Origin: Deltaproteobacteria bacterium
GTDB lineage: Bacteria > Desulfobacterota > Desulfobacteria > Desulfobacterales > C00003060
Length of the DNA stretch: 28,030 nt
NCBI GenBank assembly: GCA_019309245.1
Contig: JAFDGP010000003.1
Coordinates: 1 to 28,030 of the forward strand
Direction: 5' to 3'
The notes under the pieces are model-generated. The model had not been told where the DNA came from, did no database searches, and saw only the letters and a program-made list of their open reading frames with translations. A program made the position numbers and the translations under genes. Positions within the stretch are counted from its first letter, which is position 1, and every line of letters starts with the position of its first letter. Of the stretch, positions 1 to 12,450 are shown piece after piece.

Positions 1-116
1 AACAAAACTTCATCGCCAATCGTAGGGTGGATGCCGATCTCCAGGTAGATGAAAAGATGCTATTCGAACAGCAATGCGCTGGAGCCGCACAACAATACGG
101 GGTCACAGTACCTTGA
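1..116 (+). CDS. 3' end of an upstream gene (partial, product unknown)
   Basis: Frame +3 is open from the window edge (QNFIANRRVDADLQVDEKMLFEQQCAGAAQQYGVTVP) to TGA 114-116, 5 nt before the likely TTG start of the next gene. There is no recognisable motif. Confidence 0.4.
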   Translation, partial: QNFIANRRVDADLQVDEKMLFEQQCAGAAQQYGVTVP

Positions 117-121
117 CCGTA

Positions 122-1078
122 TTGAAAACAAATACAAAAAACGTTGAGCCATCCTTGATCCAACGATACAGCCGCAATCCGATCCTGACCAAACACGACG
201 TGCCCTATCCGGTGGAGACCGTGCATAATGCCGGTGTGGTCAAGCACGACCGCAAATACGTGATGCTCTTCAGGTCGCACCTCAGGAACGGGCGCTCGAT
301 TATCGGGCTGGCGCAAAGCGAGGATGGCTTTCATTTTCGCGTTCACCCGGAGCCGTTCTTGACACCGGCTCAGGACGGCCCTTTTGCACCCTACGAGGAA
401 TACGGTGTGGAGGACCCGCGTGTGTGCGCTTTAGACGGCACCTATCTGATCACCTACAGTGCGTACTCAAGATACGGGGTCAGGGTGGCTCTGGCCAAGA
501 CCGCAGATTTTGGGTCTATAAAACGGGTGGCCCTGGTGACCCAGGCGGACTGTCGCAACATTGTTATTTTCCCGGCACGGTTTTCCGGCCGGTACGCCCG
601 GCTGGACCGGCCTCATTCGGAGATCTGTCCCTGGTCGATTTGGGTCTCCTATTCCCCGGATTTGATCCACTGGGGCGACTCAAAGGTCGCTATTACGCCG
701 CTGGCCTATCATTGGGACGAGATGAAAGTGGGCCCGGGCGCGACTCCCATTCAAACCTCACGGGGTTGGCTCAACCTCTTTCATGGTGTGTTTCAGACCA
801 TGGACGGCGCTGTTTACAGGCTTGGCGCGGCTCTTCATGATCTTGAGGACCCGGGCAGGGTCCTGGGGGTGGCTGATGAGTGGATTCTGCAACCCGAGGA
901 TCCCTGGGAGGTGAGTGGTTACGTCCATAACGTGGTCTTTTCGTGCGGGGCGGTGGCCGAACCGGACGGGATGCTCAAGGTCTACTGGGGCGGTGCTGAT
1001 ACCGTGATTTGCGCAGGGACCGTCGAAACGGAGGCCCTGGTTGATTTGTGCCTGACCCGGTCCAGACCCCCGATCTAA
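122..1078 (+). CDS. Glycoside hydrolase family 130 protein (mannoside phosphorylase-like, 5-bladed beta-propeller)
   Basis: Motifs RYSRNPIL, HNAGVV, GVEDPRV (catalytic Asp region), KVGPGATP and YVHNVVFSCG, plus VYWGGADTVI. The ORF track starts at ATG 74, which overlaps the upstream ORF, so in-frame TTG 122 is preferred. The start is uncertain. Confidence 0.88.
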   Translation: MKTNTKNVEPSLIQRYSRNPILTKHDVPYPVETVHNAGVVKHDRKYVMLFRSHLRNGRSIIGLAQSEDGFHFRVHPEPFLTPAQDGPFAPYEEYGVEDPRVCALDGTYLITYSAYSRYGVRVALAKTADFGSIKRVALVTQADCRNIVIFPARFSGRYARLDRPHSEICPWSIWVSYSPDLIHWGDSKVAITPLAYHWDEMKVGPGATPIQTSRGWLNLFHGVFQTMDGAVYRLGAALHDLEDPGRVLGVADEWILQPEDPWEVSGYVHNVVFSCGAVAEPDGMLKVYWGGADTVICAGTVETEALVDLCLTRSRPPI

Positions 1079-1304
1079 TTGCCCTGCGGCAATCGCCGAT
1101 TTGCCGATAAGGTTGCCGGTTGCCAGCTTTCGGGGTATTGCGCGCCGGATGCCGGGGAAAAGCGCCCCGATTCGGATCTTCTCATTTGACCTTGTCATTA
1201 TGTGTTTCCCTCTCGTTCCGAACGGTTCATAATCCAAAAATCTTTTTTATAACAATAGGATATTCGTTTAATGAATTTCGGGGCGGGAGTATTTTCAGTC
1301 GGCT

Positions 1305-1320
1305 TGGCATATGCGTTGCT
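1305..1320 (+). promoter_or_regulatory. sigma54 (RpoN) -24/-12 promoter of the acs operon
   Basis: TGGCATATGCGTTGCT versus consensus TGGCACGNNNNTTGCW, with GG and GC at exact spacing. It lies 74 nt upstream of the acs ATG and is preceded by an AT-rich tract (about 1229-1277). Confidence 0.8.
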
Positions 1321-1393
1321 TAATGTCATGTAGACCCCGACTAGGCCGTGCGGAGCGGCTCGGGGAATGCCGCAAGGAAGGAGGAGAACCCAT

Positions 1394-3346
1394 ATGGAAG
1401 TTGTTGCAATGAAAAAAAAGGACAAGGAAAGCCAACCTGAGCGGGAAACCACTGAGGCCTTGCTGGCGGAGGGCCGGGTATTTCGGCCGTTGCCCGAGCT
1501 GGTGGTGGATGCGAACTTGAACCCGAACGATTATGAAGAGGCGGTTCAAAAAGCCCGGCACGATCTGGAAGGCTTCTGGGAAGAGGCTGCCGAGGACCTG
1601 CACTGGTTCAAGCGGTGGGACAAGGTGCTGGATCGCTCTGAGGCCCCTTTTTTCAAGTGGTTTGTGGGGGGAAAGACCAATATCGCCTACAATGCGCTCG
1701 ACCGCCACATCACCACGCACCGCAAGAACAAGGTGGCCATCATTCACGAGCGCGAGGATGGTTCTCGGGAGCGGTTGACCTATTATGATCTGTACCGGGA
1801 AGCCAACCGTTTCGCGAACGTGCTTAAATCACTTGGGATTCAAAAAGGAGATCGGGTGGCCATATACCTGCCGAACATTCCCGAGATCGCCATTGTGATG
1901 TTGGGTTGTGCCAAAGTCGGTGCGATTCACAGCGTGGTCTACGCAGGGTTTAGTGCCGCAGCGCTTCGAGAACGCATCAACCATGCGGAGGCGAGGCTGG
2001 TCGTTACCGTGGACGGGTTTCAGAGAAACGGCAAGACCATCAGACTTAAGGAAGTGGTAGACGAGGCCATGACCGCGTGTCCCAGCGTGGAGACGGTGAT
2101 CGTGATTCAACGTATGGGCGTGGAAGTGGACATGAGCGATGGGCGCTACCTGTGGTTTCACGATTTGATGAAAGGGGAACCTGCCAGCTTCGAGACCATG
2201 GCCATGGACGCGACTGATCCTTTGTATATCCTGTACACATCAGGCACCACAGGCAAACCCAAGGGTGTGGTCCACTGCCATGGGGGCTACGGTGTCGGCA
2301 TCACCCGGACTCTCAAGTGGGTCTTCGACATCAAGGAAACGGACATTTTCTGGTGTGCCGCCGATCCCGGCTGGGTTACGGGTCACAGTTACATTGTGTA
2401 TGGCCCGTTGTGTGCCGGGACGACCACTGTGATGTACGAAGGCCATCCCCTGTTTCCCGGGCCGGATCGGATGTGGCAGATCATCGAAAAATACGGCATT
2501 AACATCTTATATACAGCCCCGACGACCATCCGGATGCTCATGCGGTTTGGGTCGCAACATCCGAAGAAGTATGATCTTTCTACGCTCAGGATCCTGGGCA
2601 CGGTGGGCGAGCCGATCAATCCGGAGGCCTGGGTCTGGTATTATGAAAACATCGGCAACCATAACTGTCCCATCATGGATACTTGGTGGCAGACGGAAAC
2701 CGGTATGTTCATGGTGACCCCCACGCCCTGCAACGTCTTGAAGCCCGGCTCAGCATTCAAACCTTTTCCCGGGGTGCACGTGGATGTTGTGGACGCCCAC
2801 GGGGAGCCGGTCCAGGCCGGAAAAGGGGGATACGTGGTGGTGAAAGAACCGTGGCCGGCCATGCTGCAAGGATTGTACAAAGATCCTGAAAAGTACAAGG
2901 AAGTGTACTGGTCCAAGATACCCGGGATGTATCTGGCCGGAGACATCGCCACCAAGGACGAAGACGGCTATTTCCGCTTCCAGGGGCGCTCGGATGACGT
3001 ATTAAACACGGCCGGGCACCGGATCGGGACCGCCGAGGTGGAAAGCGCACTGGTCAGTCACAAGTACGTGGCCGAGGCCGCATGCATCGGTGTGCCCGAC
3101 AAGGTCAAGGGTGAGGTCGCCAAGTTGTTTGTGACCCTCAAGGAGGGTGTGGAAGAAGACGAGGCCACCCTGGTCAACGAGCTCAAGGCGCACGTTCGAA
3201 AAGAGCTGGGGCCGATCGTGGTGATCCGTGAAATTTCCTTTGAAAGCAAGTTGCCCAAGACGCGAAGCGGCAAGATCATGCGACGCGTTCTTAAGGCCAG
3301 GGAACTGGGGCTTTCAGAGGGCGATCTATCGACACTTGACGACTAG
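1394..3346 (+). CDS. acs: Acetate--CoA ligase (AMP-forming acetyl-CoA synthetase)
   Basis: P-loop YTSGTTGKPKG, FWCAADPGWVTGHSYIVYGPL, DTWWQTETG, GRSDD and PKTRSGKIMRR (acetylatable catalytic Lys). A strong SD (GGAGGAG 1380-1386) precedes ATG 1394. Confidence 0.96.
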   Translation: MEVVAMKKKDKESQPERETTEALLAEGRVFRPLPELVVDANLNPNDYEEAVQKARHDLEGFWEEAAEDLHWFKRWDKVLDRSEAPFFKWFVGGKTNIAYNALDRHITTHRKNKVAIIHEREDGSRERLTYYDLYREANRFANVLKSLGIQKGDRVAIYLPNIPEIAIVMLGCAKVGAIHSVVYAGFSAAALRERINHAEARLVVTVDGFQRNGKTIRLKEVVDEAMTACPSVETVIVIQRMGVEVDMSDGRYLWFHDLMKGEPASFETMAMDATDPLYILYTSGTTGKPKGVVHCHGGYGVGITRTLKWVFDIKETDIFWCAADPGWVTGHSYIVYGPLCAGTTTVMYEGHPLFPGPDRMWQIIEKYGINILYTAPTTIRMLMRFGSQHPKKYDLSTLRILGTVGEPINPEAWVWYYENIGNHNCPIMDTWWQTETGMFMVTPTPCNVLKPGSAFKPFPGVHVDVVDAHGEPVQAGKGGYVVVKEPWPAMLQGLYKDPEKYKEVYWSKIPGMYLAGDIATKDEDGYFRFQGRSDDVLNTAGHRIGTAEVESALVSHKYVAEAACIGVPDKVKGEVAKLFVTLKEGVEEDEATLVNELKAHVRKELGPIVVIREISFESKLPKTRSGKIMRRVLKARELGLSEGDLSTLDD

Positions 3347-3370
3347 AAGAAGCGAAGGGAGGAAATCAGG

Positions 3371-5278
3371 ATGAGCGCAGGTGTTTATTGGTTGTTTGCA
3401 TTTGTTTTGGCGTATTGGGCATACTGCATTACCTGGGGCGTCAAGGGGGCGATTCGCGCGAAGACCGCGTCGGACTATTTTATTGCCGGCCGTCAGATCA
3501 ATGTCTGGGTCTTTGTGCTGGCCGCCACGGCTACGTCTTTTAGCGGCTGGACCTTTGTGGGGCATCCGGCGCTGGTATGGCGCGATGGGTTTCCGTATGC
3601 CTATGCGTCGTTTTACGCGATTACCATTCCTTTTACCGGGGTGATCTTTTTGAAACGCCAGTGGCTGCTCGGGAAGAAATACGGCTTCGTCACTCCGGGG
3701 GAGATGTTTTCCACCTATTTCAAGAGCGATACCATGCGGATTCTCACGGTGATCGTGGCCCTGTTTTTCAGCATTCCCTACCTGGGTGTGCAATTGCGGG
3801 CTTCGGGGTATTTGTTTAATATCCTGACCGATGGGCTGTTCTCCGTCGATGTCGGGATGGTCCTTCTGGCCGTGGTGGTGACGATTTACGTGGCCTTGGG
3901 CGGGCTGCGCTCGGTGGCGTATGTGGATACGGCCCAGTGCATCCTGCTGGCTTTCGGCATTGTTGCCTTGGGCATCATCACGCTTTCTTTTTGCGGTGGA
4001 TGGGAAGGCCTGACCCAGGGAATTGCCAAGATCACCATGGCCGACAGCAAACTGACCCCGGAGGGCTACAGCCACTATATTGCCATCCCGGGGGTCATTC
4101 AATGGGTGCCGTCGGCAGGAAAGGCGGTCGGCGGGGTCTGGACCGGCGTGATGATCCTGACCTATATGTTTGCCTTAATGGGCATCCAATCGGCGCCGGC
4201 CTTTTCCATGTGGGCCTTTTCCAACAAGGACCCCAGGCCGTTTCCCTTGCAGCAGGTATTCGCCTCATCCATGGGGATCGGTTTTATCCTCATGGTCTTT
4301 ACGGCCATCCAGGGTATGGGTGGTCACGCCCTCATGGATGCCAATATTATTCCGTCGCTGGCCGGGGGCAAGCAGGGCAACCTGGTTCCTTGGCTCATCC
4401 ACTTGCTGGGCGACCACTGGCCGGTGCTGGTCGGGCTCCTGGCGGTGTGCGCGTTGGCGGCCATGCAGTCTACCGGCGCGGCCTATATGTCCACCGCAGC
4501 CGGCATGCTCACCCGAGACATTTACAAGCACTTCATGAACAAAGAAGCCACGCACAAGCAGCAGAAATTTTTCGGGCGTATTTTGGTCCTTCTTGTGGTG
4601 TTTGCCGCCCTGGTCGTGGCGGTGACCTCCACGGACGCCCTGGTGCTTCTGGGAGGACTGGCGGTATCCTATGGATTTCAGATGTGGCCCGCGCTGATCG
4701 CCATCTGTTATGTGCCCTGGTTTACCAAACAGGGGATCGTTTCAGGACTGATCGCCGGTTTGGTAGGGGTTACACTGACCTACAAGTTCAAATTCGGACT
4801 TCCCTGGGGCGCCTATCCCCTGACCATTCACAGTGCCGGCTGGGGAATTTTGTTCAACCTGACCTTTGCTATCCTCGTCAGTGCGGTGACCCAGCCCGAC
4901 AGGAAGGAATTCGCCAGGCGGTTTGAATTCCACAAATTCCTGCGCCAACATGCCGGCCTGCCGTCTGCCAAGAAGCACCTGAAACCCATCGGTTGGATTA
5001 TTACGGTGTTGTGGTTTATCTTCGCTATCGGCCCGGGTGCGGTGATCGGCAACACAATTTTCGGTGATCCCAAGGCGCCGTCCACGTGGTTTCTTGGGAT
5101 GCCGTCCATCTGGATCTGGCAGCTGTTGTGGTGGGCCCTCGGGTGTTATATGATGTATTTTCTGGCCTTTAAGCTCGAGATGTCCACGAATATCACTGGA
5201 GAGGTCGAGGTCTTGGCCGAAGATATCGGGGATGTTCGGGTCTCTGATGGAAAGCCTATTCCGGAGGTGGCCGGCTAG
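3371..5278 (+). CDS. Sodium:solute symporter (SSS/SLC5) family transporter with a C-terminal membrane extension; probable acetate/monocarboxylate uptake
   Basis: Hydrophobic 635 aa protein with SSS signatures DYFIAGR, ATSFSGWTFVGHP, GGLRSVAYVD and AAMQST. It starts 24 nt after acs. The substrate is inferred from context only. Confidence 0.9.
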   Translation: MSAGVYWLFAFVLAYWAYCITWGVKGAIRAKTASDYFIAGRQINVWVFVLAATATSFSGWTFVGHPALVWRDGFPYAYASFYAITIPFTGVIFLKRQWLLGKKYGFVTPGEMFSTYFKSDTMRILTVIVALFFSIPYLGVQLRASGYLFNILTDGLFSVDVGMVLLAVVVTIYVALGGLRSVAYVDTAQCILLAFGIVALGIITLSFCGGWEGLTQGIAKITMADSKLTPEGYSHYIAIPGVIQWVPSAGKAVGGVWTGVMILTYMFALMGIQSAPAFSMWAFSNKDPRPFPLQQVFASSMGIGFILMVFTAIQGMGGHALMDANIIPSLAGGKQGNLVPWLIHLLGDHWPVLVGLLAVCALAAMQSTGAAYMSTAAGMLTRDIYKHFMNKEATHKQQKFFGRILVLLVVFAALVVAVTSTDALVLLGGLAVSYGFQMWPALIAICYVPWFTKQGIVSGLIAGLVGVTLTYKFKFGLPWGAYPLTIHSAGWGILFNLTFAILVSAVTQPDRKEFARRFEFHKFLRQHAGLPSAKKHLKPIGWIITVLWFIFAIGPGAVIGNTIFGDPKAPSTWFLGMPSIWIWQLLWWALGCYMMYFLAFKLEMSTNITGEVEVLAEDIGDVRVSDGKPIPEVAG

Positions 5279-5282
5279 CTTC

Positions 5283-5816
5283 ATGAAGAGCGGTTTGTTG
5301 AAATGGATAGCCCTGGCAGTGGTCTTGTGCCTCTGCCAGGGCTGTAACAGCCAGAAACGCCCTGAAGAAAAACGACAAAAGGCTTATAAGAAACTGTTGA
5401 TAGAGGGGGCGGACCTCCTGAAACGGCAGAAATTCCAAGATGCCTTCGATATGTTCGACAGAGCTGTGACCAAGATGCCGGAAGCTGCCGAAGGCTATTT
5501 GAATCGTGGGATAACCCGGGTCCTGCTCAAAGAATACGAAAAGGCTGTGGGCGATTTCACGGAGGCCATCAAACGGGATGACAAGCTGGCCATCGCCTAT
5601 GCCGACCGGGGGATTGCCTATGATCATCTGGGCCAGCAGAAAGAGGCCCTCTCCGATTACAAGAAAGCCCTTGCCATAGACCCCAACCAGATCAAAGGTC
5701 CCGGGTTTTTGGAGCGTTTCATGTACAAAAAGCCCAAAACCCCTGATGTAAGAGAGCGAGCGGTCTTTCTGGAAAAGACAATGCGTTCGAAAGACTCAAG
5801 AAATGACCCTTCCTGA
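5283..5816 (+). CDS. TPR-repeat lipoprotein
   Basis: Signal peptide with lipobox-like LCQGC after ATG 5283 (4 nt after the symporter stop). About 3 TPR units (AEGYLNRG..., A...FTEAI, AYADRGIAY...A..DYKKALAIDP). Confidence 0.8.
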   Translation: MKSGLLKWIALAVVLCLCQGCNSQKRPEEKRQKAYKKLLIEGADLLKRQKFQDAFDMFDRAVTKMPEAAEGYLNRGITRVLLKEYEKAVGDFTEAIKRDDKLAIAYADRGIAYDHLGQQKEALSDYKKALAIDPNQIKGPGFLERFMYKKPKTPDVRERAVFLEKTMRSKDSRNDPS

Positions 5817-5878
5817 CATAACCCGCCGGATATTCTCTACGCACCATCCATTGTCCCCCGTGTTTTTTATTCTTCGCC

Positions 5879-5908
5879 TTGAAATTATTGTTCAAACCGT
5901 GGTAAATT
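5879..5908 (+). promoter_or_regulatory. Candidate sigma70 promoter of the DUF294 gene
   Basis: TTGAAA (5879-5884), 18 nt spacer, TAAATT (5903-5908) with an extended -10 TG at 5900-5901, in an AT-rich intergenic region. Confidence 0.5.
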
Positions 5909-5977
5909 AATAGTTTAAAATTCGCTGCCTTTTTGTTTACACTGGCCGGGTGCCGACAAATTTGTAATGGATGAACC

Positions 5978-7915
5978 ATGACCAAGGTCCACGACATCAA
6001 TGCTGTCGAATTCTTGCGAGAAATTATCCCGTTCAACAGCCTTCCCGAGGAGGTGATCCTGGAAATTTGCGACCAGCTCCGGATTCAGGAATTCCCGAAG
6101 GACAGCCTGATTTTCCAACAAGATGGCCCTCCCTGTGAATACCTTTACATGATCCGGCGGGGGGCGGTTATCAAGTCCGTGCAAAGGGACGGGGCCGATG
6201 TCTTGTTTGATTTCAGGACGGAAGGGGAGGTGTTCGGCAGCGCGTCACTCGTCGCAGGAACGGGCCCTGCATTCAGCGTCCGTGCCTATGAGGACACGGT
6301 ATGCTACCTGCTTCCAAAGGCAGCCTTTGATGCCCTGATGCAAAACCACGTGGGGTTTCACGAGCATTTCGCGATACGGGTTTCTCGTCTTTCGGATCGG
6401 CTCAAAAAGGCCCAGTCTGGCATCTTTTCCCTGCCTTCCGGTTCCGATGTCCTGGTCTTGCAGGAAGGGAGGCCGTTATTTGGCGGGGTCTCAGCCGGTG
6501 AATTGATCAAAAGTAAACCAGTGACCTGTTCCCCGTACCATGAAGCGACTTACGTGGCCAAGTTGATGGCCCGCCACCAGATCGGGGCCGTGGTGGTGGT
6601 TGATTTGCGAAACCGGCCTCTTGGTATCGTGACCAAGACGGATATGACCAACAAGATCCTCGCGGCGGAAAAGACCGGGGCAGAACCCGTCAGAACCATC
6701 ATGAGTGCACCGGTTATCGGGGTGTCACCGGAAGAGCCGGCCTTCAATGCCTTGCTCAAAATGGCCGGCAGAGGATTCCATCACGTGTGTGTCGTGGTTG
6801 GAGAGATGCTTCTTGGTGTGATTTCTCAGCACGACTTGATCACCCTCCAGGGGGCAGACCCACTGGCTGTGATTAATCGGATCGAAGCTCAAGACACACT
6901 CGATGGGCTCGTCGAGCCTGTTCAATCCCTGGACGCGCTCGTGGAACATCTTTTGGAGGCCGGCGTTGAGGCAAAACAAGTCGCGGGTTTTATATCGGAA
7001 TGCAACGACCGTCTGACCCGCCGCATCATCGCGCTGTCCCAGGAGGCCATGCTGGAGGAAGGTCTGGGAGCGGTTCCGGGGCCCTATTGTTGGCTGGCCC
7101 TGGGCAGCGAAGGCCGAAAAGAACAGGCCCTGCGTACGGATCAGGATAACGCCATCATCTATGCGGACCCGGAACCCGGGTCGCAGGATCGGGTGCAAAC
7201 GTATTATTTGGAACTTGGCCGACGCGTGGTCTCAGGCCTTGAACGCTGCGGATTTCCGCTGTGTAAGGGAGAAATCATGGCCAGCAATCCGCAATGGTGC
7301 TGTTCAGAGACGGCGTGGAGGACTTATTTTTCGAAGTGGATTAACGACGCATCCCCTGAGGATTTGAGGAAGTGCACGATTTTTTTTGATTTTCGCGGCC
7401 TGGAAGGGGTTACCGGGCTGGCCGACGGGCTCCGCGATTTCTTGCACGGTCAGATTGAGGCAAACCGGGCTTTCCTGAGACATTTAACCACGAACGCGCT
7501 GTACAACGGACCGCCGTTAGGGTTTTTGAGATCTCTTGTTGTGGAAAAAAAAGGGGTTCACAAGAACAAACTCAATTTGAAAATGAGCGGACTCGTCCCG
7601 GTAGTAGATGCCGTGAGGGTCTTTGCCTTGAGCCGAAACATTGACGCAACCAACACCCTGAAAAGGCTGGATCTTGTTCGTCGCAGCCACCTATTGTCCC
7701 ATAACATGGCCGCAGATGTCCAAGAGGCCTTTAGTTTTATCATGCTGCTGCGGATGAACCGCCATTTGAGTCAAAAAAAACAGGACCTGGCCCCGGATGA
7801 CTATATCAATCCGGAGGAATTGCCCAAGTTGCAGAAAAGGTCGCTGATTGAGGCATTTCATGTGATCCGGGACCTCCAGGGCGAAATGGCGGCCCGGTTC
7901 CCGGAGAGCCTGTAA
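5978..7915 (+). CDS. cNMP-binding + tandem CBS + DUF294 nucleotidyltransferase-like + substrate-binding domain protein
   Basis: N-terminal cNMP fold (LYMIRRGAV...EGEVFG), CBS pair (GAVVVVD...GIVTKTDM; GVISQHDL), GlnD/GlnE-like motif LGSEGRKEQALRTDQDNAI, then CKGEIMASNPQW, IFFDFR and NLKMSGLVP. Confidence 0.92.
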   Translation: MTKVHDINAVEFLREIIPFNSLPEEVILEICDQLRIQEFPKDSLIFQQDGPPCEYLYMIRRGAVIKSVQRDGADVLFDFRTEGEVFGSASLVAGTGPAFSVRAYEDTVCYLLPKAAFDALMQNHVGFHEHFAIRVSRLSDRLKKAQSGIFSLPSGSDVLVLQEGRPLFGGVSAGELIKSKPVTCSPYHEATYVAKLMARHQIGAVVVVDLRNRPLGIVTKTDMTNKILAAEKTGAEPVRTIMSAPVIGVSPEEPAFNALLKMAGRGFHHVCVVVGEMLLGVISQHDLITLQGADPLAVINRIEAQDTLDGLVEPVQSLDALVEHLLEAGVEAKQVAGFISECNDRLTRRIIALSQEAMLEEGLGAVPGPYCWLALGSEGRKEQALRTDQDNAIIYADPEPGSQDRVQTYYLELGRRVVSGLERCGFPLCKGEIMASNPQWCCSETAWRTYFSKWINDASPEDLRKCTIFFDFRGLEGVTGLADGLRDFLHGQIEANRAFLRHLTTNALYNGPPLGFLRSLVVEKKGVHKNKLNLKMSGLVPVVDAVRVFALSRNIDATNTLKRLDLVRRSHLLSHNMAADVQEAFSFIMLLRMNRHLSQKKQDLAPDDYINPEELPKLQKRSLIEAFHVIRDLQGEMAARFPESL

Positions 7916-8113
7916 CCCCAGGGCCTGGTGGCTGGGCTTGCTTTTTGGGCCCTTGGCCCTGTATGAAAAAATAGCGGAGGGCTGGCCCGGTATCTCGCGG
8001 AAAGCTCTGGCCGTGGCCGACGGGGCGGCTTTGGGGCAGGATACGGTGCCGGCATGAGGGCGGAATTCTAAGGAATGTTATCATCAGACTGACGTGAAAT
8101 ACCGGAAGACACC

Positions 8114-8887
8114 ATGGCGAAACTGTCGAAAAAGGAACGCGAGCTGGTCTGCCTGGAGCGTTTAAAAGCAACAGAGCGGGTAGCCAGCGAGATTGCCCAT
8201 GAACTCAACACGCCCCTGGGCGGTATCCTGATGTACAGCCATCTGTTATTGGAAGATTTGGCGGATGACGATCCGAATCTTGAAAATGTTTTGAAGATCA
8301 ACAAGTTGGCGCATCGCTGTAAAATGATTGTGCAGGGCCTATTGGACTTCGTCCACGACGACAAACCCAAATACGAACTCTTGCAGGTTAATGACATTAT
8401 TCATGAGGTCTTGGGATTTCTAGAAGACCATGTATTGTTGCGGGGGATTCGTATTGAAATCCGGTCGGGGGCGAATCTTCCCAGAGTCCGCGGGGTGGCG
8501 GATAAGCTGGAACAGGTTTTTGTTAATTTAATTACAAATGCGGCACAGTCCATGGATGGCCGGGGGACGCTGCAGCTTCAGACCACCTTTGAGCCAAAGC
8601 TTGGTCGGATTCGTATTACGTGTTCGGACACCGGGTGCGGCATTCCGGAAGACGAGCTGGAACGGGTATTCGAGCCGTTTTTTACCACTAAGGGTGAGGG
8701 GGCTGGCATGGGATTGGGGCTTTCGATTTGTCATGGAATCGTGGAACAACACGGAGGCACCATTACGGTACAGAGCAAGTCGGGTGAAGGCACGGTGTTT
8801 ACAATCCTGTTGCCGGCGGCTACAAGACGGTCAGACGAAATAGAGGTTCCCGCGGCGGCTCATAAGAGGGGCTGTCGGGCTTGCTGA
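8114..8887 (+). CDS. Histidine kinase (HisKA + HATPase_c) with no sensor or TM domain
   Basis: H-box IAHELNTPL at about residue 29, N-box QVFVNLITNA, G1 DTGCGI, F-box FEPFFTTK, G2 GMGLGLSI. In-frame stops at 8090 and 8069 prevent any long N-terminal extension. Confidence 0.9.
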   Translation: MAKLSKKERELVCLERLKATERVASEIAHELNTPLGGILMYSHLLLEDLADDDPNLENVLKINKLAHRCKMIVQGLLDFVHDDKPKYELLQVNDIIHEVLGFLEDHVLLRGIRIEIRSGANLPRVRGVADKLEQVFVNLITNAAQSMDGRGTLQLQTTFEPKLGRIRITCSDTGCGIPEDELERVFEPFFTTKGEGAGMGLGLSICHGIVEQHGGTITVQSKSGEGTVFTILLPAATRRSDEIEVPAAAHKRGCRAC

Positions 8888-8909
8888 AAAACCATTTTGA
8901 AAGAGGATT

Positions 8910-10268
8910 ATGGAACGAACTTACGACATTTTGGTGATTGATGACGACGCGTTCATGCGGGATGCCTGTCATCAGGCGTTGTCCAGGAAAGGCCATACAA
9001 CCGCCTTGGCAAAAAGCGGCAGGGAGGGATTGGCCCTGCTGGAGGAGTCTGCGTATGACCTCGTGTTGCTGGATTTGAATCTGCCCCGAGAGGATGGGTT
9101 GTTTATCCTGGCGAAGATCAAGGACATTGACCCCGATGCCGTGGTGGTGATGATATCAGGTCGCGGTTCTATTGAGACAGCGGTTCAGGCGATCAAGCTG
9201 GGGGCCTTTGATTTTATTGCCAAACCGTTTACACCGGAAGAGCTCATCAATTTGGTCTACAGGGCTCTGAGGAACCGAAGGGCCACCCGGGTTGGAAAGG
9301 GGCGGCGGCGTTATGCAGTGCGGAGGTCCAAACCCGTCAAGATCATCAGTCAGAGCGCGGCCATGGAAAGAGTAAAGGAGATGGTGGAGATGGTCGCTCC
9401 TACCGACAGCACCGTCTTGCTGGAGGGGCCGAGCGGCACGGGAAAAGGACTTGTGGCCCGAAAGCTCCATGAATTGAGCCCTCGCCGCAGCCGACCGTTT
9501 GTGGCCGTGGACTGTGGTTCCCTGGTGAAGACCTTGTTTGAAAGCGAACTCTTTGGCCATGTCAAAGGGGCCTTTACCGGGGCGGACTCGACCCAACAGG
9601 GCAAATTTGAAATGGCACGGGGCGGGACCCTCTTTTTTGATGAGATATCTAATATCAACCTGGAAATCCAGGCCAAGCTTTTGAAAGCAGTTGAAGAGAA
9701 ACGGATTTCCAAAGTGGGGGATCATAAGGTTGTCGACGTGGATGTCCGGATTATCTCCGCGACAAACGGCAATCTCAAGAAGGCCATCTCCAAAGGGCTT
9801 TTTCGGGAAGACCTTTTCTTTCGTCTCAACGTGGTCTCCATTCATCTTCCCCCCCTAAGAGAGCGCGGAGAGGACATTCCGCTTCTGGCGGAACATTTCT
9901 TGAGAATTTCATGCAATGAGCAAGGAAAATCCATTGAAGGTTTTTCGCCGAACGCGATGAAAGCGCTTTGCCAGTACACCTGGCCGGGCAATGTTCGCGA
10001 ACTTGAGAACACAGTGGAACGCCTGGTGGTCTTTGCTCAAGAAGACGTCATATCGACGCGGGACCTGGTATACTCGAACACCGTGCTTTCACGCATTGTG
10101 GATTCGGAACCGATCCGCCTGGAAGAGATGGAGCGGGAGCATATCACCAAGGTTTTGGCCAGCGTGAATGGAAACAAGACCCAGGCGGCCCAGTTATTGG
10201 GTATCGACCGCAAGACCCTCCGGATCAAGGTCAAAAAATATGGCATTGAGGAAACATCTGCTGCATGA
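8910..10268 (+). CDS. sigma54-dependent response regulator (NtrC/AtoC/ZraR-like: REC-AAA+-Fis HTH)
   Basis: REC (IDDD, LLDLNLP, FIAKPF), Walker A GPSGTGKG, ESELFGHVKGAFTGA, FFDEI, FREDLFFRLNV and C-terminal NKTQAAQLLGIDRKTL. SD AGAGGA is present. Confidence 0.95.
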   Translation: MERTYDILVIDDDAFMRDACHQALSRKGHTTALAKSGREGLALLEESAYDLVLLDLNLPREDGLFILAKIKDIDPDAVVVMISGRGSIETAVQAIKLGAFDFIAKPFTPEELINLVYRALRNRRATRVGKGRRRYAVRRSKPVKIISQSAAMERVKEMVEMVAPTDSTVLLEGPSGTGKGLVARKLHELSPRRSRPFVAVDCGSLVKTLFESELFGHVKGAFTGADSTQQGKFEMARGGTLFFDEISNINLEIQAKLLKAVEEKRISKVGDHKVVDVDVRIISATNGNLKKAISKGLFREDLFFRLNVVSIHLPPLRERGEDIPLLAEHFLRISCNEQGKSIEGFSPNAMKALCQYTWPGNVRELENTVERLVVFAQEDVISTRDLVYSNTVLSRIVDSEPIRLEEMEREHITKVLASVNGNKTQAAQLLGIDRKTLRIKVKKYGIEETSAA

Positions 10269-10337
10269 TTGGGGCATGGCTGCGACTAAATATAAGCTGA
10301 AGACTTGGGCAGCCCGTTGTTGAGCATTTCCTCGCAC

Positions 10338-10691: not shown

Positions 10692-12047
10692 CTACGGCTT
10701 TGGCAACCCCTCAATTGCCTTGAGTGCCCGGGTGATGTCTTCTTCGGGCATCTCATATTTTATCAGCTTTCCGGAAAGATAGGCGTCATAGGCAGCAAGG
10801 TCCACCACGCCGTGGCCGCTCCAGTTGAAAAGGATCACTTTTTCTTTACCTTCTTCCCTGGCGCGTTGGGCTTCATCCACAACAGCCGCAATGGCATGAT
10901 TGGTCTCCGGCGCCGGGATGAAACCTTCGCTTCGGGCCCAGTTTATCCCGGCCTCAAAGGTCTGGATCTGATCGTATGCCCTGGGCTCAACGATCTGTTC
11001 CTTGACCAGGTGACTGATGATTGGAGCCATCCCATGGTATCTGAGTCCACCGGCATGGATGGGTGCCGGCACAAAATCGTGTCCAAGGGTATACATGGCC
11101 AGAAGTGGAGTGGTCTGCGCCGTATCTCCGAAATCATAGGCATAGGGTCCCTTAGTCATGGTCGGACATGAGGTAGGCTCGGCCGCCACTACAGAGATTT
11201 CTTTCCCATTGATTTTATCCCGGACAAAGGGCAGACAAAGACCTCCGAAATTACTTCCTCCCCCGGCGCAACCGATCACCACGTCGGGATAGATACCGAC
11301 CTTTTTCAGTTGCTTTTGGGCCTCCAGTCCAATGACGGTTTGATGCAATAATACGTGATTCAATACACTTCCCAGGGAATACCGGGCATCTGGATCACCT
11401 ACCGCATCTTCAATGGCTTCACTGATCGCAATGCCCAGGCTACCCGGGGAGTCGGGATGTTCTGAGAGTATTTTTCTGCCTGCATGGGTCTGGTCGCTGG
11501 GACTGGGGATGCAGTTGGCCCCCCAGACCGCCATCATGAGTCCCCGAAAAGGCTTTTGCTGGTAGCTGACCTTCACCATAAAAACCCGGCACTCCAAGCC
11601 AAACATCTGGCAAGCCATACTCAGGGCACTGCCCCATTGACCCGCGCCGGTCTCTGTGGAGAGCCGTTTTACCCCAAAGGCCTTGTTATAATAAGCCTGT
11701 GCTACGGCTGTGTTGGGTTTGTGAGATCCTGGCGGGCTCACGCCTTCGTTCTTGTAAAAGATTTTGACCGGGGCATCCAGCAGCTTTTCGAAGTTTTCCG
11801 CCCGGCACAACGGTGATGGGCGCCACAACAGGTATTTGTCCAGCACCGCTTCCGGGATGTCGATCCATCGTTCGGTGCTGACTTCCTGTTCAATGAGATT
11901 CATCGGAAAGACTGGGGCCAGATCATCGGGACCCACCGGTTGTCCCGTTGCCGGGTGAAGGGGCGGGCTCATCGGCGAAGGCAGATCGGCCAGGACATTG
12001 TACCACCGAGTCGGAATTTCGCTGTCGTTTAAGAAAACTTTTTTCAC
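10692..12047 (-). CDS. trpB2: TrpB-like PLP enzyme (type 2 tryptophan synthase beta, TrpB2)
   Basis: GSHKPNTA (PLP Lys), [41 protein letters not shown] and LSGHG-like WSGHG. About 450 aa, typical of TrpB2. GTG start with SD AAGGAGG. No trpA is adjacent. Confidence 0.95.
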
Positions 12048-12406: not shown

Positions 12407-12422
12407 TGGCACGAAATTGGCA
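12407..12422 (+). promoter_or_regulatory. Candidate sigma54 -24/-12 promoter upstream of the glycan operon
   Basis: TGGCACGAAATTGGCA: perfect TGGCACG, GC at correct spacing, one mismatch in the TTGC box. Confidence 0.55.
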
Positions 12423-12450
12423 TGATTGCGACTATCGGAATAATACTTGT

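Follow-up and report, generated by a model that had tools for sequence, protein, structure and literature searches.

A conserved transmitter-only histidine kinase and an NtrC-type activator at an acetyl-CoA synthetase locus of Desulfobacterales

The window analysed here is a stretch of 28,030 nucleotides, positions 1 to 28,030 of contig JAFDGP010000003.1, from a 2.97-Mb Desulfobacterales assembly (GCA_019309245.1; hereafter G000). All of the features described below lie on its plus strand. An AMP-forming acetyl-CoA synthetase gene, acs, occupies positions 1367 to 3346 (NF001208, 923 bits, above the cut-off), and its start may be the ATG at 1394, which is preceded by a GGAGGAG ribosome-binding site. 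The next gene (3371 to 5278) encodes a stand-alone sodium:solute symporter (SSS) recognised by Pfam, probably a carboxylate (acetate) importer as judged from its context. Pfam has no match in residues 464 to 635, beyond the SSF domain; this part contains hydrophobic segments that resemble TM helices and an acidic tail of 36 residues. It is followed by a gene (5283 to 5816) for an exported TPR protein, a probable lipoprotein by its signal-peptide-like sequence MKSGLLKWIALAVVLCLCQGC, which probably starts at M18 of the ORF whose listed start is 5232. A TPR gene also follows the SSS gene in G008, G009, G010, G015, G002, and G050. The fourth gene (5978 to 7915) encodes a protein with a cNMP-binding domain, a CBS pair, a DUF294 nucleotidyltransferase domain, and a DUF294_C domain by Pfam; DUF294-type paralogues come after acs in other genomes. 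A weak terminator-like hairpin with a T-run lies at 7921 to 7949. A histidine kinase (HK) gene (8114 to 8887) begins 198 nt after the DUF294 stop codon, and a response regulator (RR) gene (8910 to 10268) begins 22 nt after the kinase gene. The RNase_T exonuclease gene which relatives (for example G009 and G050) have between the DUF294 and HK genes is absent here, and tblastn found no remnant of it. RNA folding of the spacer between DUF294 and HK gave an ordinary result (z = 0.5), and no recognisable promoter was found ahead of the kinase gene at this locus. The gene content thus agrees with the initial annotation, which had listed acs, an SSS transporter, a CBS/nucleotidyltransferase protein, and a sigma-54 activator after the kinase.

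The kinase is a protein of 257 amino acid residues with an NtrB/AtoS/ZraS-like core. Pfam recognised only HisKA (residues 22 to 80, E = 4.5e-10) and HATPase_c (residues 128 to 236, E = 1.1e-29), which correspond to the DHp and CA parts of a transmitter. In an alignment of 50 orthologues, the phospho-acceptor His29 in the H-box HELNTP is invariant, and the N box (N138/N142), the G1 box (D172-x-G174-x-G176), the F box (F186/F190), and the G2 box (G198-x-G200-x-G202) are invariant or nearly so. T33, the His+4 residue of the HE-x-x-T motif, is also invariant. Since this motif supports phosphatase activity in HisKA kinases, the protein is probably a bifunctional kinase/phosphatase. Neither Pfam nor hydropathy analysis detected an input module N-terminal to the transmitter, be it a TM/periplasmic, PAS, GAF, HAMP, Cache, REC, or similar domain. 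The maximum Kyte-Doolittle value in a 19-residue window is only 0.78, and thus the kinase has no TM segment. Only 27 to 28 residues precede the phospho-His. Because in-frame stop codons are present upstream of the ORF (TAA at 8069 and TGA at 8090) within the 198-nt gap, no upstream sensor exon is possible. The initial annotation had already described a kinase with complete boxes, without TM, PAS, or other input domains, and with the two stops excluding a missed sensor. An AlphaFold2 model (pLDDT 79.6) has a single helical hairpin (helices 6 to 48 and 56 to 80), an alpha/beta CA domain (88 to 234), and then a disordered tail. The closest solved structure is a 244-residue cytoplasmic construct of ZraS (9jfj; E = 1.7e-34, query residues 10 to 241).

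Is the short form a truncation? Of 37 genomes of the genus, 28 carry the kinase orthologue, each as a single copy, and its length is always about 240 to 275 residues. In 27 orthologues the short frame is bounded by stop codons, and the phospho-His lies at residue 28 or 29 from the conserved start. More than 100 metagenomic clusters of the short form share 56 to 92% identity with the kinase, while the nearest sensor-bearing kinases, proteins of at least 451 residues, share 51% at most. In an exhaustive search, the orthogroup formed one 50%-identity cluster clearly apart from the remainder, and a search of the genome contigs with the kinase protein alone returned only generic paralogues (best 45% identity). 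Two apparent exceptions were dismissed: the partial kinase of G001 is not a degraded gene, as a run of N interrupts the sequence, and the HK-RR fusion of G023 is not real, as a stop codon lies between both genes. Thus, as far as comparative sequence data can tell, the sensorless form is a conserved state of the kinase and not a truncation or an assembly artefact. The initial annotation had asked whether close homologues keep this form or all carry an N-terminal sensor, and the former was found.

The RR is an NtrC-family sigma-54 enhancer-binding regulator. Its Pfam matches are Response_reg (2.4e-29), Sigma54_activat (2.4e-65), and HTH_8 (5.7e-14), the last being a Fis-type HTH. The acceptor Asp55 of the receiver lies within LLDLNLP, and the GAFTGA motif of the AAA+ domain is at residue 220. 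The protein falls below all of the NCBIfam equivalog cut-offs compared (NtrC 409 of 559 bits, AtoC 402 of 714, and ZraR 394 of 760). The RR gene directly follows the HK gene wherever the contig permits, at about 27 loci. In addition, one sublineage has a clade of duplicated, kinase-less RRs (support 98/94), whose genes immediately precede acs in G008, G010 (two copies), G016, and G048; these duplicates retain both the acceptor Asp and the alpha-1 surface of the receiver. The recognition helix of the Fis-type domain is conserved, yet it is generic for the family. G000 encodes rpoN (441 bits, above the cut-off), and ackA is also present.

The initial annotation had placed acs under a sigma-54 promoter, and this was substantiated. 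The element TGGCAT-N5-TTGCT at 1305 to 1320 provides the -24 and -12 motifs upstream of acs, and it is conserved at no fewer than 11 of 16 acs orthologues and at none of 7 acs paralogues. Two candidate UAS palindromes of the form CGGGG-N7-CCCCG precede it. The distal one, CGGGGTATTGCGCGCCG (1131 to 1147), matches at 9 of 10 positions and begins 174 nt before the -24 motif, and the proximal one, CGGGGAAAAGCGCCCCG (1153 to 1169), matches at 10 of 10 positions and begins 152 nt before it. Tandem sites about 21 to 22 bp apart, about 156 and 135 nt before the -24 motif, were found at fixed offsets in G013, G020, G009, G004, and G050, and the closest relative, G051, has a near-identical proximal palindrome. 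By shuffling, the palindrome gave p values of 0.0005 or less in 7 of 12 scorable loci. In the whole of G000, the palindrome at 1153 to 1169 is the only GGGG-N7-CCCC sequence located 60 to 260 nt upstream of a sigma-54-like site. Across the genus, the composite of enhancer and sigma-54 site occurs at 11 loci versus 1 in the reversed control. These 11 include eight loci at acs or probable acs (that of G004 is cut by the contig end) and one further locus that is an acs-type promoter disrupted by an IS. The composite was not found in five well-assembled genomes that lack acs while keeping HK-RR. The sublineage that carries orphan RRs has a degenerate palindrome (6 to 8 of 10 positions). Two other sequences considered as the enhancer, TGACCTTGTCA at 1187 to 1197 and the GGTTGCC repeats at 1101 to 1124, are conserved in no other acs promoter.

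How far is the HK-RR pair associated with the acetate genes? The array acs-SSS-TPR-DUF294-(exonuclease)-HK-RR is shared by G000, G009, G017, G042, and G050, and probably by G015, and arrays running from acs to HK-RR occur on both deep branches of the RR tree. Synteny with acs is therefore found elsewhere, a point on which the initial annotation had made its proposal depend. An acs orthologue is present only in genomes that contain the RR (19 of 19 versus 0 of 6). In most genomes, HK-RR is unlinked from acs and flanked by varied, unrelated genes, and about 12 genomes hold the pair without an acs orthologue; thus, the pair must have other or additional targets. The co-occurrence with acs, SSS, and DUF294 anticipated in the initial annotation stood as far as the shared array is concerned, but not for the genus as a whole, where the SSS orthologue is present in 9 and the DUF294 orthologue in 10 of the 37 genomes versus 28 for the kinase. 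Taken together, genome comparison supports a link of the HK-RR pair to the acetate genes. Since the sigma-54 promoter is conserved, tandem UAS precede it, and RR duplicates sit directly upstream of acs, the pair most likely controls the promoter at 1305 and the neighbouring acetate operon, as the initial annotation had supposed.

The best explanation is the following. The kinase would phosphorylate the NtrC-type activator encoded 22 nt downstream, and the phosphorylated RR would bind the tandem palindromes at 1131 to 1169, a binding which I infer. Via DNA looping, the RR would then open the sigma-54 promoter at 1305 and drive an operon for acetate activation and uptake, comprising acs, the symporter, the exported TPR protein, and the DUF294 protein. 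The system would be a functional deltaproteobacterial counterpart of CrbS/CrbR with its origin in a different kinase and regulator family. This explanation as a whole, in which the 257-residue protein is a complete, functional histidine kinase consisting of a transmitter alone and the HK and RR form a cognate pair, is given a probability of roughly 55%. The kinase input is most likely intracellular: the protein lacks any ligand-binding module, the acs enhancer does not serve for its autoregulation, and the kinase occurs much more widely than the symporter and the DUF294 protein. Such autoregulation was rejected because neither a sigma-54 promoter nor a palindrome was found upstream of the kinase gene in 27 loci. 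The leading guess, reached by elimination and speculative, is that the metabolic state sets the phosphorylation of the RR: the adenylate ratio may act on the balance of a bifunctional kinase/phosphatase, and/or acetyl-phosphate may act on the receiver. The sequence shows no feature specific for adenylates or acetyl-phosphate.

Several other explanations may be considered. The adjacency to acs might be incidental, with HK-RR being a general or otherwise targeted sigma-54 system and some other activator driving the acs promoter. Another activator could indeed use the acs enhancer, because G000 encodes about 27 sigma-54 AAA+ activators; moreover, roughly 12 genomes have the pair but no acs orthologue, with no enhancer signature in the five well-assembled examples searched, and the pair mostly has neighbours other than acs. 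I nevertheless regard this explanation as unlikely, since linkage to acs recurs on both deep branches of the tree, RR duplicates have moved directly upstream of acs, acs orthologues are confined to RR-containing genomes, and the enhancer plus sigma-54 signature is almost exclusive to acs. Alternatively, as the initial annotation proposed, the separate symporter or the GlnD-like DUF294 protein may signal to the kinase in trans, the locus being an unfused acetate-sensing module. Co-sensing has precedents in DctA-DcuS and BceAB-BceS, the GlnD-PII-NtrB cascade is a precedent for a nucleotidyltransferase input, and the control of a transmitter by a separate protein is well established, NtrB-PII being an example. 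NmpS is another kinase under trans control, exerted via its receiver domain (PMC6211767). The kinase gene directly follows DUF294 or DUF294-EXO, and lies downstream of SSS, in five and probably six genomes, and the DUF294 protein combines cNMP and CBS ligand-binding modules with a nucleotidyltransferase domain. However, the co-occurrence counts (28 versus 9 and 10 of 37 genomes) give this proposal no support, unrelated genes flank HK-RR in most genomes, and the transporter family is stand-alone and found in phyla without this kinase. In addition, the kinase is soluble, lacks a docking module, and has only 27 residues before its phospho-His, and the TPR protein is exported. In Pseudomonas fluorescens, the equivalent of the DUF294 protein belongs to the outputs of the acetate two-component system, and deleting it produced no phenotype (PMC5715377). 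A trans input of this kind is quite improbable, though it may apply in genomes in which these genes occur together.

It may also be asked whether the bare transmitter is itself the metabolic sensor, its kinase/phosphatase balance responding directly to the adenylate or acetyl-phosphate state, or whether it is under covalent control and the neighbouring GlnD-like DUF294 enzyme, ancestrally linked along with its exonuclease partner, nucleotidylylates the kinase, the RR, or an adaptor; this pair of options is a long shot. If nucleotidylylation by DUF294 were true, the locus would be to carbon/acetate what the GlnD-PII-NtrB-NtrC cascade is to nitrogen, and the widespread, uncharacterised cNMP-CBS-DUF294/exonuclease pair would gain a first function. 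A redox input is a slim prospect. In RegB, disulfide formation at Cys265 inactivates the kinase (PMC3000548). Here, Cys69 of the DHp helix does not vary within the orthogroup; it has Arg and Lys as neighbours and sits after the phospho-His and before the CA domain. A Cys also occupies this column in 98 of the 120 closest homologues with a sensor and in 90 of 145 sequences representing 50% clusters; thus, Cys69 is a family trait and was rejected as a special redox feature of the sensorless form. The organism is also an anaerobe with a reducing cytoplasm. The least credible explanation, raised by the initial annotation and given hardly any weight, is that an SLC5/STAC transporter-kinase like CrbS or CbrA was literally split in evolution into a symporter gene and a kinase gene. 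Its appeal is a functional parallel only, a two-component system adjoining acs and a symporter, together with the fact that CbrB is an NtrC-type activator (PMC9100948, PMC8871633). No SSF domain was found among the best 120 long kinase relatives, which have PAS or Cache/HAMP sensors instead, and no HisKA or HATPase_c domain among the best 120 SSS-transporter clusters (lengths of 349 to 1112 residues searched). All of those 120 clusters are stand-alone SSF proteins of about 645 to 670 residues. The kinase offers no room for a STAC domain, because only 27 residues precede the phospho-His, and three genes separate the transporter gene from the kinase gene. CrbR-dependent promoters, moreover, are of the RpoD type with a different inverted repeat (PMC5715377). 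With no transporter-fused relatives among the best 120 on either side and no STAC-sized stretch in the kinase, the suggestion of a split is not supported.

The preferred explanation, a bare transmitter acting through an NtrC-type activator, can be compared with known systems. CrbS and CbrA are SLC5-STAC-PAS-kinase fusions, and CrbS is also a hybrid kinase, whereas the kinase here is a bare transmitter and the symporter belongs to an unrelated stand-alone SSS family. [quoted passage not shown] The present pair probably controls a similar gene set, and the synteny and the sigma-54 promoter with its UAS at acs are consistent with this. The P. fluorescens CrbS/R regulon contains acs, actP, and the cNMP-CBS-nucleotidyltransferase gene, and CrbR activates RpoD-type promoters via the 'ACTU' repeat (PMC5715377), in contrast to the sigma-54 promoter and CGGGG-N7-CCCCG palindromes found here. 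The partner of CbrA, CbrB, resembles the present RR in being a sigma-54 activator. It thus appears that two-component control over a set of acs, a carboxylate symporter, and a cNMP-CBS-DUF294 protein evolved at least twice, with kinases and regulators from unrelated families. In the literature searched, no sigma-54 two-component control of acs of this kind was described, and the paper on the D. vulgaris sigma-54 regulome describes no acs regulator. For sigma-54-dependent expression of acs, the locus offers a candidate regulator and a candidate enhancer motif, in an uncultured lineage annotated as Desulfobacterales/Thermodesulfobacteriota.

Genome catalogues contain many kinases that lack a recognisable input domain, but a defined output is known for hardly any of them, and their regulation is therefore poorly understood. 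By its sequence, the present kinase is a tidy, real example of an input-less kinase and not a piece of a broken-up CrbS/CbrA transporter-kinase. It is also a compact case: a 257-residue kinase, a partner activator, one candidate promoter with two conserved candidate sites, and an interpretable acetate target. NmpS, ExsG, and RegB (through Cys265) are examples of kinases whose output is set by means other than a ligand-binding sensor domain of their own (PMC6211767, PMC3000548). The input module of NmpS and ExsG is a receiver domain at the N-terminus, and RegB has a membrane quinone-binding domain; the kinase here has neither, and its conserved Cys is typical of the family.

NtrB/NtrC (GlnL/GlnG) shares with the present pair an HPK4/NtrB-like transmitter and a REC-AAA+(GAFTGA)-Fis-HTH activator, as well as a sigma-54 promoter with tandem palindromic activator sites, here candidate sites, more than 100 nt upstream. 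Since NtrB is controlled mainly through its transmitter by the separate protein PII, a transmitter alone can be regulated. NtrB, however, has an N-terminal PAS domain, its target is glnA and not, as probably here, acs, and the RR stays at 409 bits under the NtrC equivalog cut-off of 559. AtoSC controls short-chain fatty-acid catabolism through sigma-54. The kinase core has its best NCBIfam match in AtoS (184 bits, far under the cut-off of 646) and its third best in ZraS (159 bits, far under 479), also the closest solved transmitter; both AtoS and ZraS possess input regions of the membrane/periplasmic and HAMP/PAS kinds. These matches span only the last 230 or so residues of AtoS and ZraS, which are not orthologues of the kinase described here.

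The first part of the window (1-10300) carries on the + strand the GH130, acs, symporter, TPR, DUF294, kinase, and response regulator genes in that order. The GH130 gene lies ahead of acs (1367-3346), which is followed by genes for a 635-aa sodium:solute symporter (SSS; 3371-5278), a TPR protein (ORF 5232-5816), a cNMP-binding/CBS/DUF294/DUF294_C protein (5978-7915), a 257-aa kinase (HK; 8114-8887), and an NtrC-type response regulator (RR; 8910-10268). The kinase has HisKA and HATPase_c as its sole domains, its phospho-His is residue 29 in HELNTP, and no hydrophobic segment was found in its 257 residues. The gene starts 198 nt after the DUF294 stop codon, and its frame is closed upstream by in-frame TAA (8069) and TGA (8090) codons. 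The initial annotation of a sensorless kinase was correct in every detail. With 50 orthologues as input, AlphaFold2 (pLDDT 79.6) gave a helical hairpin and a CA domain, followed by a disordered tail, and the kinase aligns end to end with an engineered cytoplasmic construct of ZraS.

Is this short form conserved? A single-copy orthologue was found in 28 of the 37 species genomes of the genus, and partial copies at contig ends or gaps in two more. In each of the 27 readable copies, a stop codon closes the frame upstream and the phospho-His is 28-29 residues from the conserved start. More than 100 clusters of 204-302 aa with 56-92% identity consist of the transmitter domains alone; the best proteins of at least 451 aa reach 51% identity at most (237 bits) and have PAS or Cache/HAMP sensors. 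These results answer in the affirmative the conservation check proposed earlier. When 1.84 billion cluster representatives were searched exhaustively with HMMER, the kinase orthogroup came out as one 50% cluster (297 bits), and the next match scored 250 bits. Other short kinases (~39-44% identity) make up ~7% of the top 150 matches, and thus input-less kinases arose repeatedly. In 16 other families of the same order, only paralogues of at most 41% identity, in long open frames, were found.

The RR gene comes next after the kinase gene wherever the contig permits, which is in ~27 loci. The flanks of the pair beyond the RR are variable (metallophosphoesterase, Smr-GidB, xylose-isomerase-like TIM barrel, PilZ, and others), with a flagellar rod gene and MarR among the further neighbours. 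An acs-SSS-TPR-DUF294-exonuclease (RNase_T)-HK-RR array is also present in the relatives G009, G017, G042, and G050, and probably in G015, interrupted by contig ends. The window has this array without the exonuclease gene: by comparison with L013:4866-5594, L107:6556-7281, and L108:11449-12174, the RNase_T/DnaQ-like gene (~242 aa) is absent from 7916-8113 with no detectable remnant. It lies between the DUF294 and kinase genes in G009, G017, G042, and G050, and directly after the DUF294 gene in G008, G010, and G015. Contig C54 of the window's own assembly (G000) has a paralogous DUF294 (30% identity) and exonuclease (38% identity) pair.

In a maximum-likelihood tree of 38 RR copies, acs-linked arrays occur on both deep branches, and kinase-less RR duplicates form one clade (support 98/94). 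These orphan RRs are the immediate upstream neighbours of acs in G008, G010 (two copies), G016, and G048 (L105:1108-2457, L106:1731-3068, L155:7463-8812, L158:2202-3557, and L120:3673-4770). The duplication occurred in one sublineage of the genus, and G010 has three RR copies in total. Since the acceptor Asp is retained in the orphan RRs and their receiver alpha-1 surface is nearly identical, the single short kinase could serve them too. The acs on G010 contig C74 (L106:3952-4680), beside SSS-TPR-DUF294-exonuclease genes, aligns to residues 3-226 and 633-659 alone of the window protein and appears to be internally deleted or misassembled; another acs, on contig C21, is intact and is accompanied by an RR and a palindrome of its own.

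At least 11 of 16 acs orthologues share an upstream sigma-54 element (1305-1320 in the window; TGGCAT-N5-TTGCT), which is absent from all seven examined copies of a ~50%-identical acs paralogue. Farther upstream are 17-bp palindromes (CGGGG-N7-CCCCG) at fixed offsets of ~156 and ~135 nt before the -24, in tandem and about two helical turns apart. In the window, these candidate enhancers are at 1131-1147 (9/10 match) and 1153-1169 (10/10). The palindrome is perfect or 9/10 in G000, G051, G013, G020, G009, G004, G010, and G050, with shuffle p ≤0.0005 in 7 of 12 scorable loci. Near the orphan RRs of G008, G016, and G048 it is degenerate (6-8/10 positions). Other enhancer candidates at the acs promoter were ruled out as not conserved. 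The whole G000 assembly, in which rpoN is present, has 66 sigma-54-like sites and 58 GGGG-N7-CCCC palindromes, and the sole pair in enhancer geometry is at acs.

Across the genus, the composite pattern was found at 11 loci versus one for the reversed control. Eight of the 11 are acs or probable acs promoters, with a G004 site, cut by a contig end before any readable gene, counted as probable. One is an acs-type promoter now ahead of a transposase-like gene (L166:1500-3172, G042 contig C43). The actual G042 acs is on another contig (C15; L116:1-414), where repeated sequence and a -24/-12 match that is no more than weak precede it; promoter and gene may have been separated by a mobile element. 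The three remaining matches, which precede an ammonium-transporter-like gene, a gene for a secreted CxxCH-motif protein, and no detected ORF, look coincidental. The acs orthologues are confined to genomes with the RR family (19/19 versus 0/6 RR-less), these genomes being related and the samples not independent.

Sequence comparison thus supports well a regulatory link of the HK-RR pair to the acs promoter. As to the co-occurrence of the pair with acs, raised in the initial annotation, the arrays recur on both deep RR branches, but in ~12 genomes the pair is kept and an acs orthologue is missing. Neither the composite signature nor a palindrome excess was found in five well-assembled acs-less genomes (90-93% complete), so the pair must act on different or further targets. 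Because of these acs-less pairs and the ~27 sigma-54 activator paralogues encoded in G000, that this RR acts at the candidate enhancer is a strong inference.

Where does the signal enter? It was speculated that the pair is a split form of CrbS/CbrA, the SLC5/STAC transporter-kinase fusions, with acetate input in trans from the symporter or the DUF294 protein. The split reading fails on homology: none of the 120 closest long homologues of the kinase bears an SSF domain, and the symporter belongs to a stand-alone family (~645-670 aa) with SSF as the sole domain. The family keeps 65-69% identity across proteins labelled as Nitrospirota, Gammaproteobacteria, and Desulfobacterota-type lineages, unusually high for such distant phyla. 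The symporter has extra C-terminal hydrophobic segments past SSF and reaches the cut-off of no curated NCBIfam family. The phyletic profiles (kinase 28/37, SSS 9/37, DUF294 10/37) also argue against either protein as a required trans input. In P. fluorescens, the equivalent cAMP-binding/CBS/nucleotidyltransferase protein belongs to the CrbS/R regulon with acs and actP, and its deletion gives no phenotype (PMC5715377), which suggests that DUF294 is cargo of the acetate regulon, not its sensor. In genomes without the window-type DUF294, acs is still directly followed by a DUF294-type paralogue of 28-33% identity (L117, L119, L121, L124, L126, and L134); thus, the acs-DUF294 association is more general than the kinase association. 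The acs enhancer does not drive the kinase gene, since no sigma-54 promoter or palindrome precedes that gene in 27 loci.

Cys69, invariant in DHp helix 2, is reminiscent of the redox cysteine of RegB (PMC3000548). It was rejected as a feature peculiar to the short kinase, because 98 of the 120 closest sensor-bearing relatives also have Cys at this position. By elimination, I speculate that the input is intracellular. It might be intrinsic to the transmitter/receiver pair, as the adenylate ratio or acetyl-phosphate (considered because ackA is present); alternatively, an unlinked protein partner might provide it.

Mechanistically, the pair is like NtrB/NtrC: the transmitter is of HPK4 type, the activator is an AAA+ protein with GAFTGA, and the sigma-54 promoter has tandem sites upstream. 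Its predicted function is like that of CrbS/CrbR, whose targets are acs and the genes for a carboxylate symporter and a DUF294-type protein. The pair is not orthologous to NtrBC, AtoSC, or ZraSR, with every score below the curated cut-off, and the kinase is not a member of the SLC5/STAC kinases.

The listed acs start is ATG 1367, yet it is the in-frame ATG 1394 that has a strong ribosome-binding site (GGAGGAG) ahead of it, and many orthologue alignments start several residues in. The TPR ORF overlaps the symporter gene end, and its likely true start is Met18 (nt 5283). From there, the protein has a signal-peptide/lipobox-like N-terminus (MKSGLLKWIALAVVLCLCQGC) and is probably an exported (lipo)protein within a cytoplasmic acetate operon. 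Downstream of the RR, a convergent PLP-dependent enzyme gene (PALP domain; 10692-12047, - strand) accompanies the HK-RR pair with strong conservation, also in genomes with acs unlinked (84-89% identity in G009, G011, G020, G022, and G051); its sigma-70-like promoter match is at 12277-12248. Another sigma-54-like site close to consensus (TGGCACGAAATTGGC; 12407-12421) is intergenic, upstream of a 182-aa wHTH gene that is the first of a glycan operon, and is overlapped by a sigma-70-like match (12417-12444).
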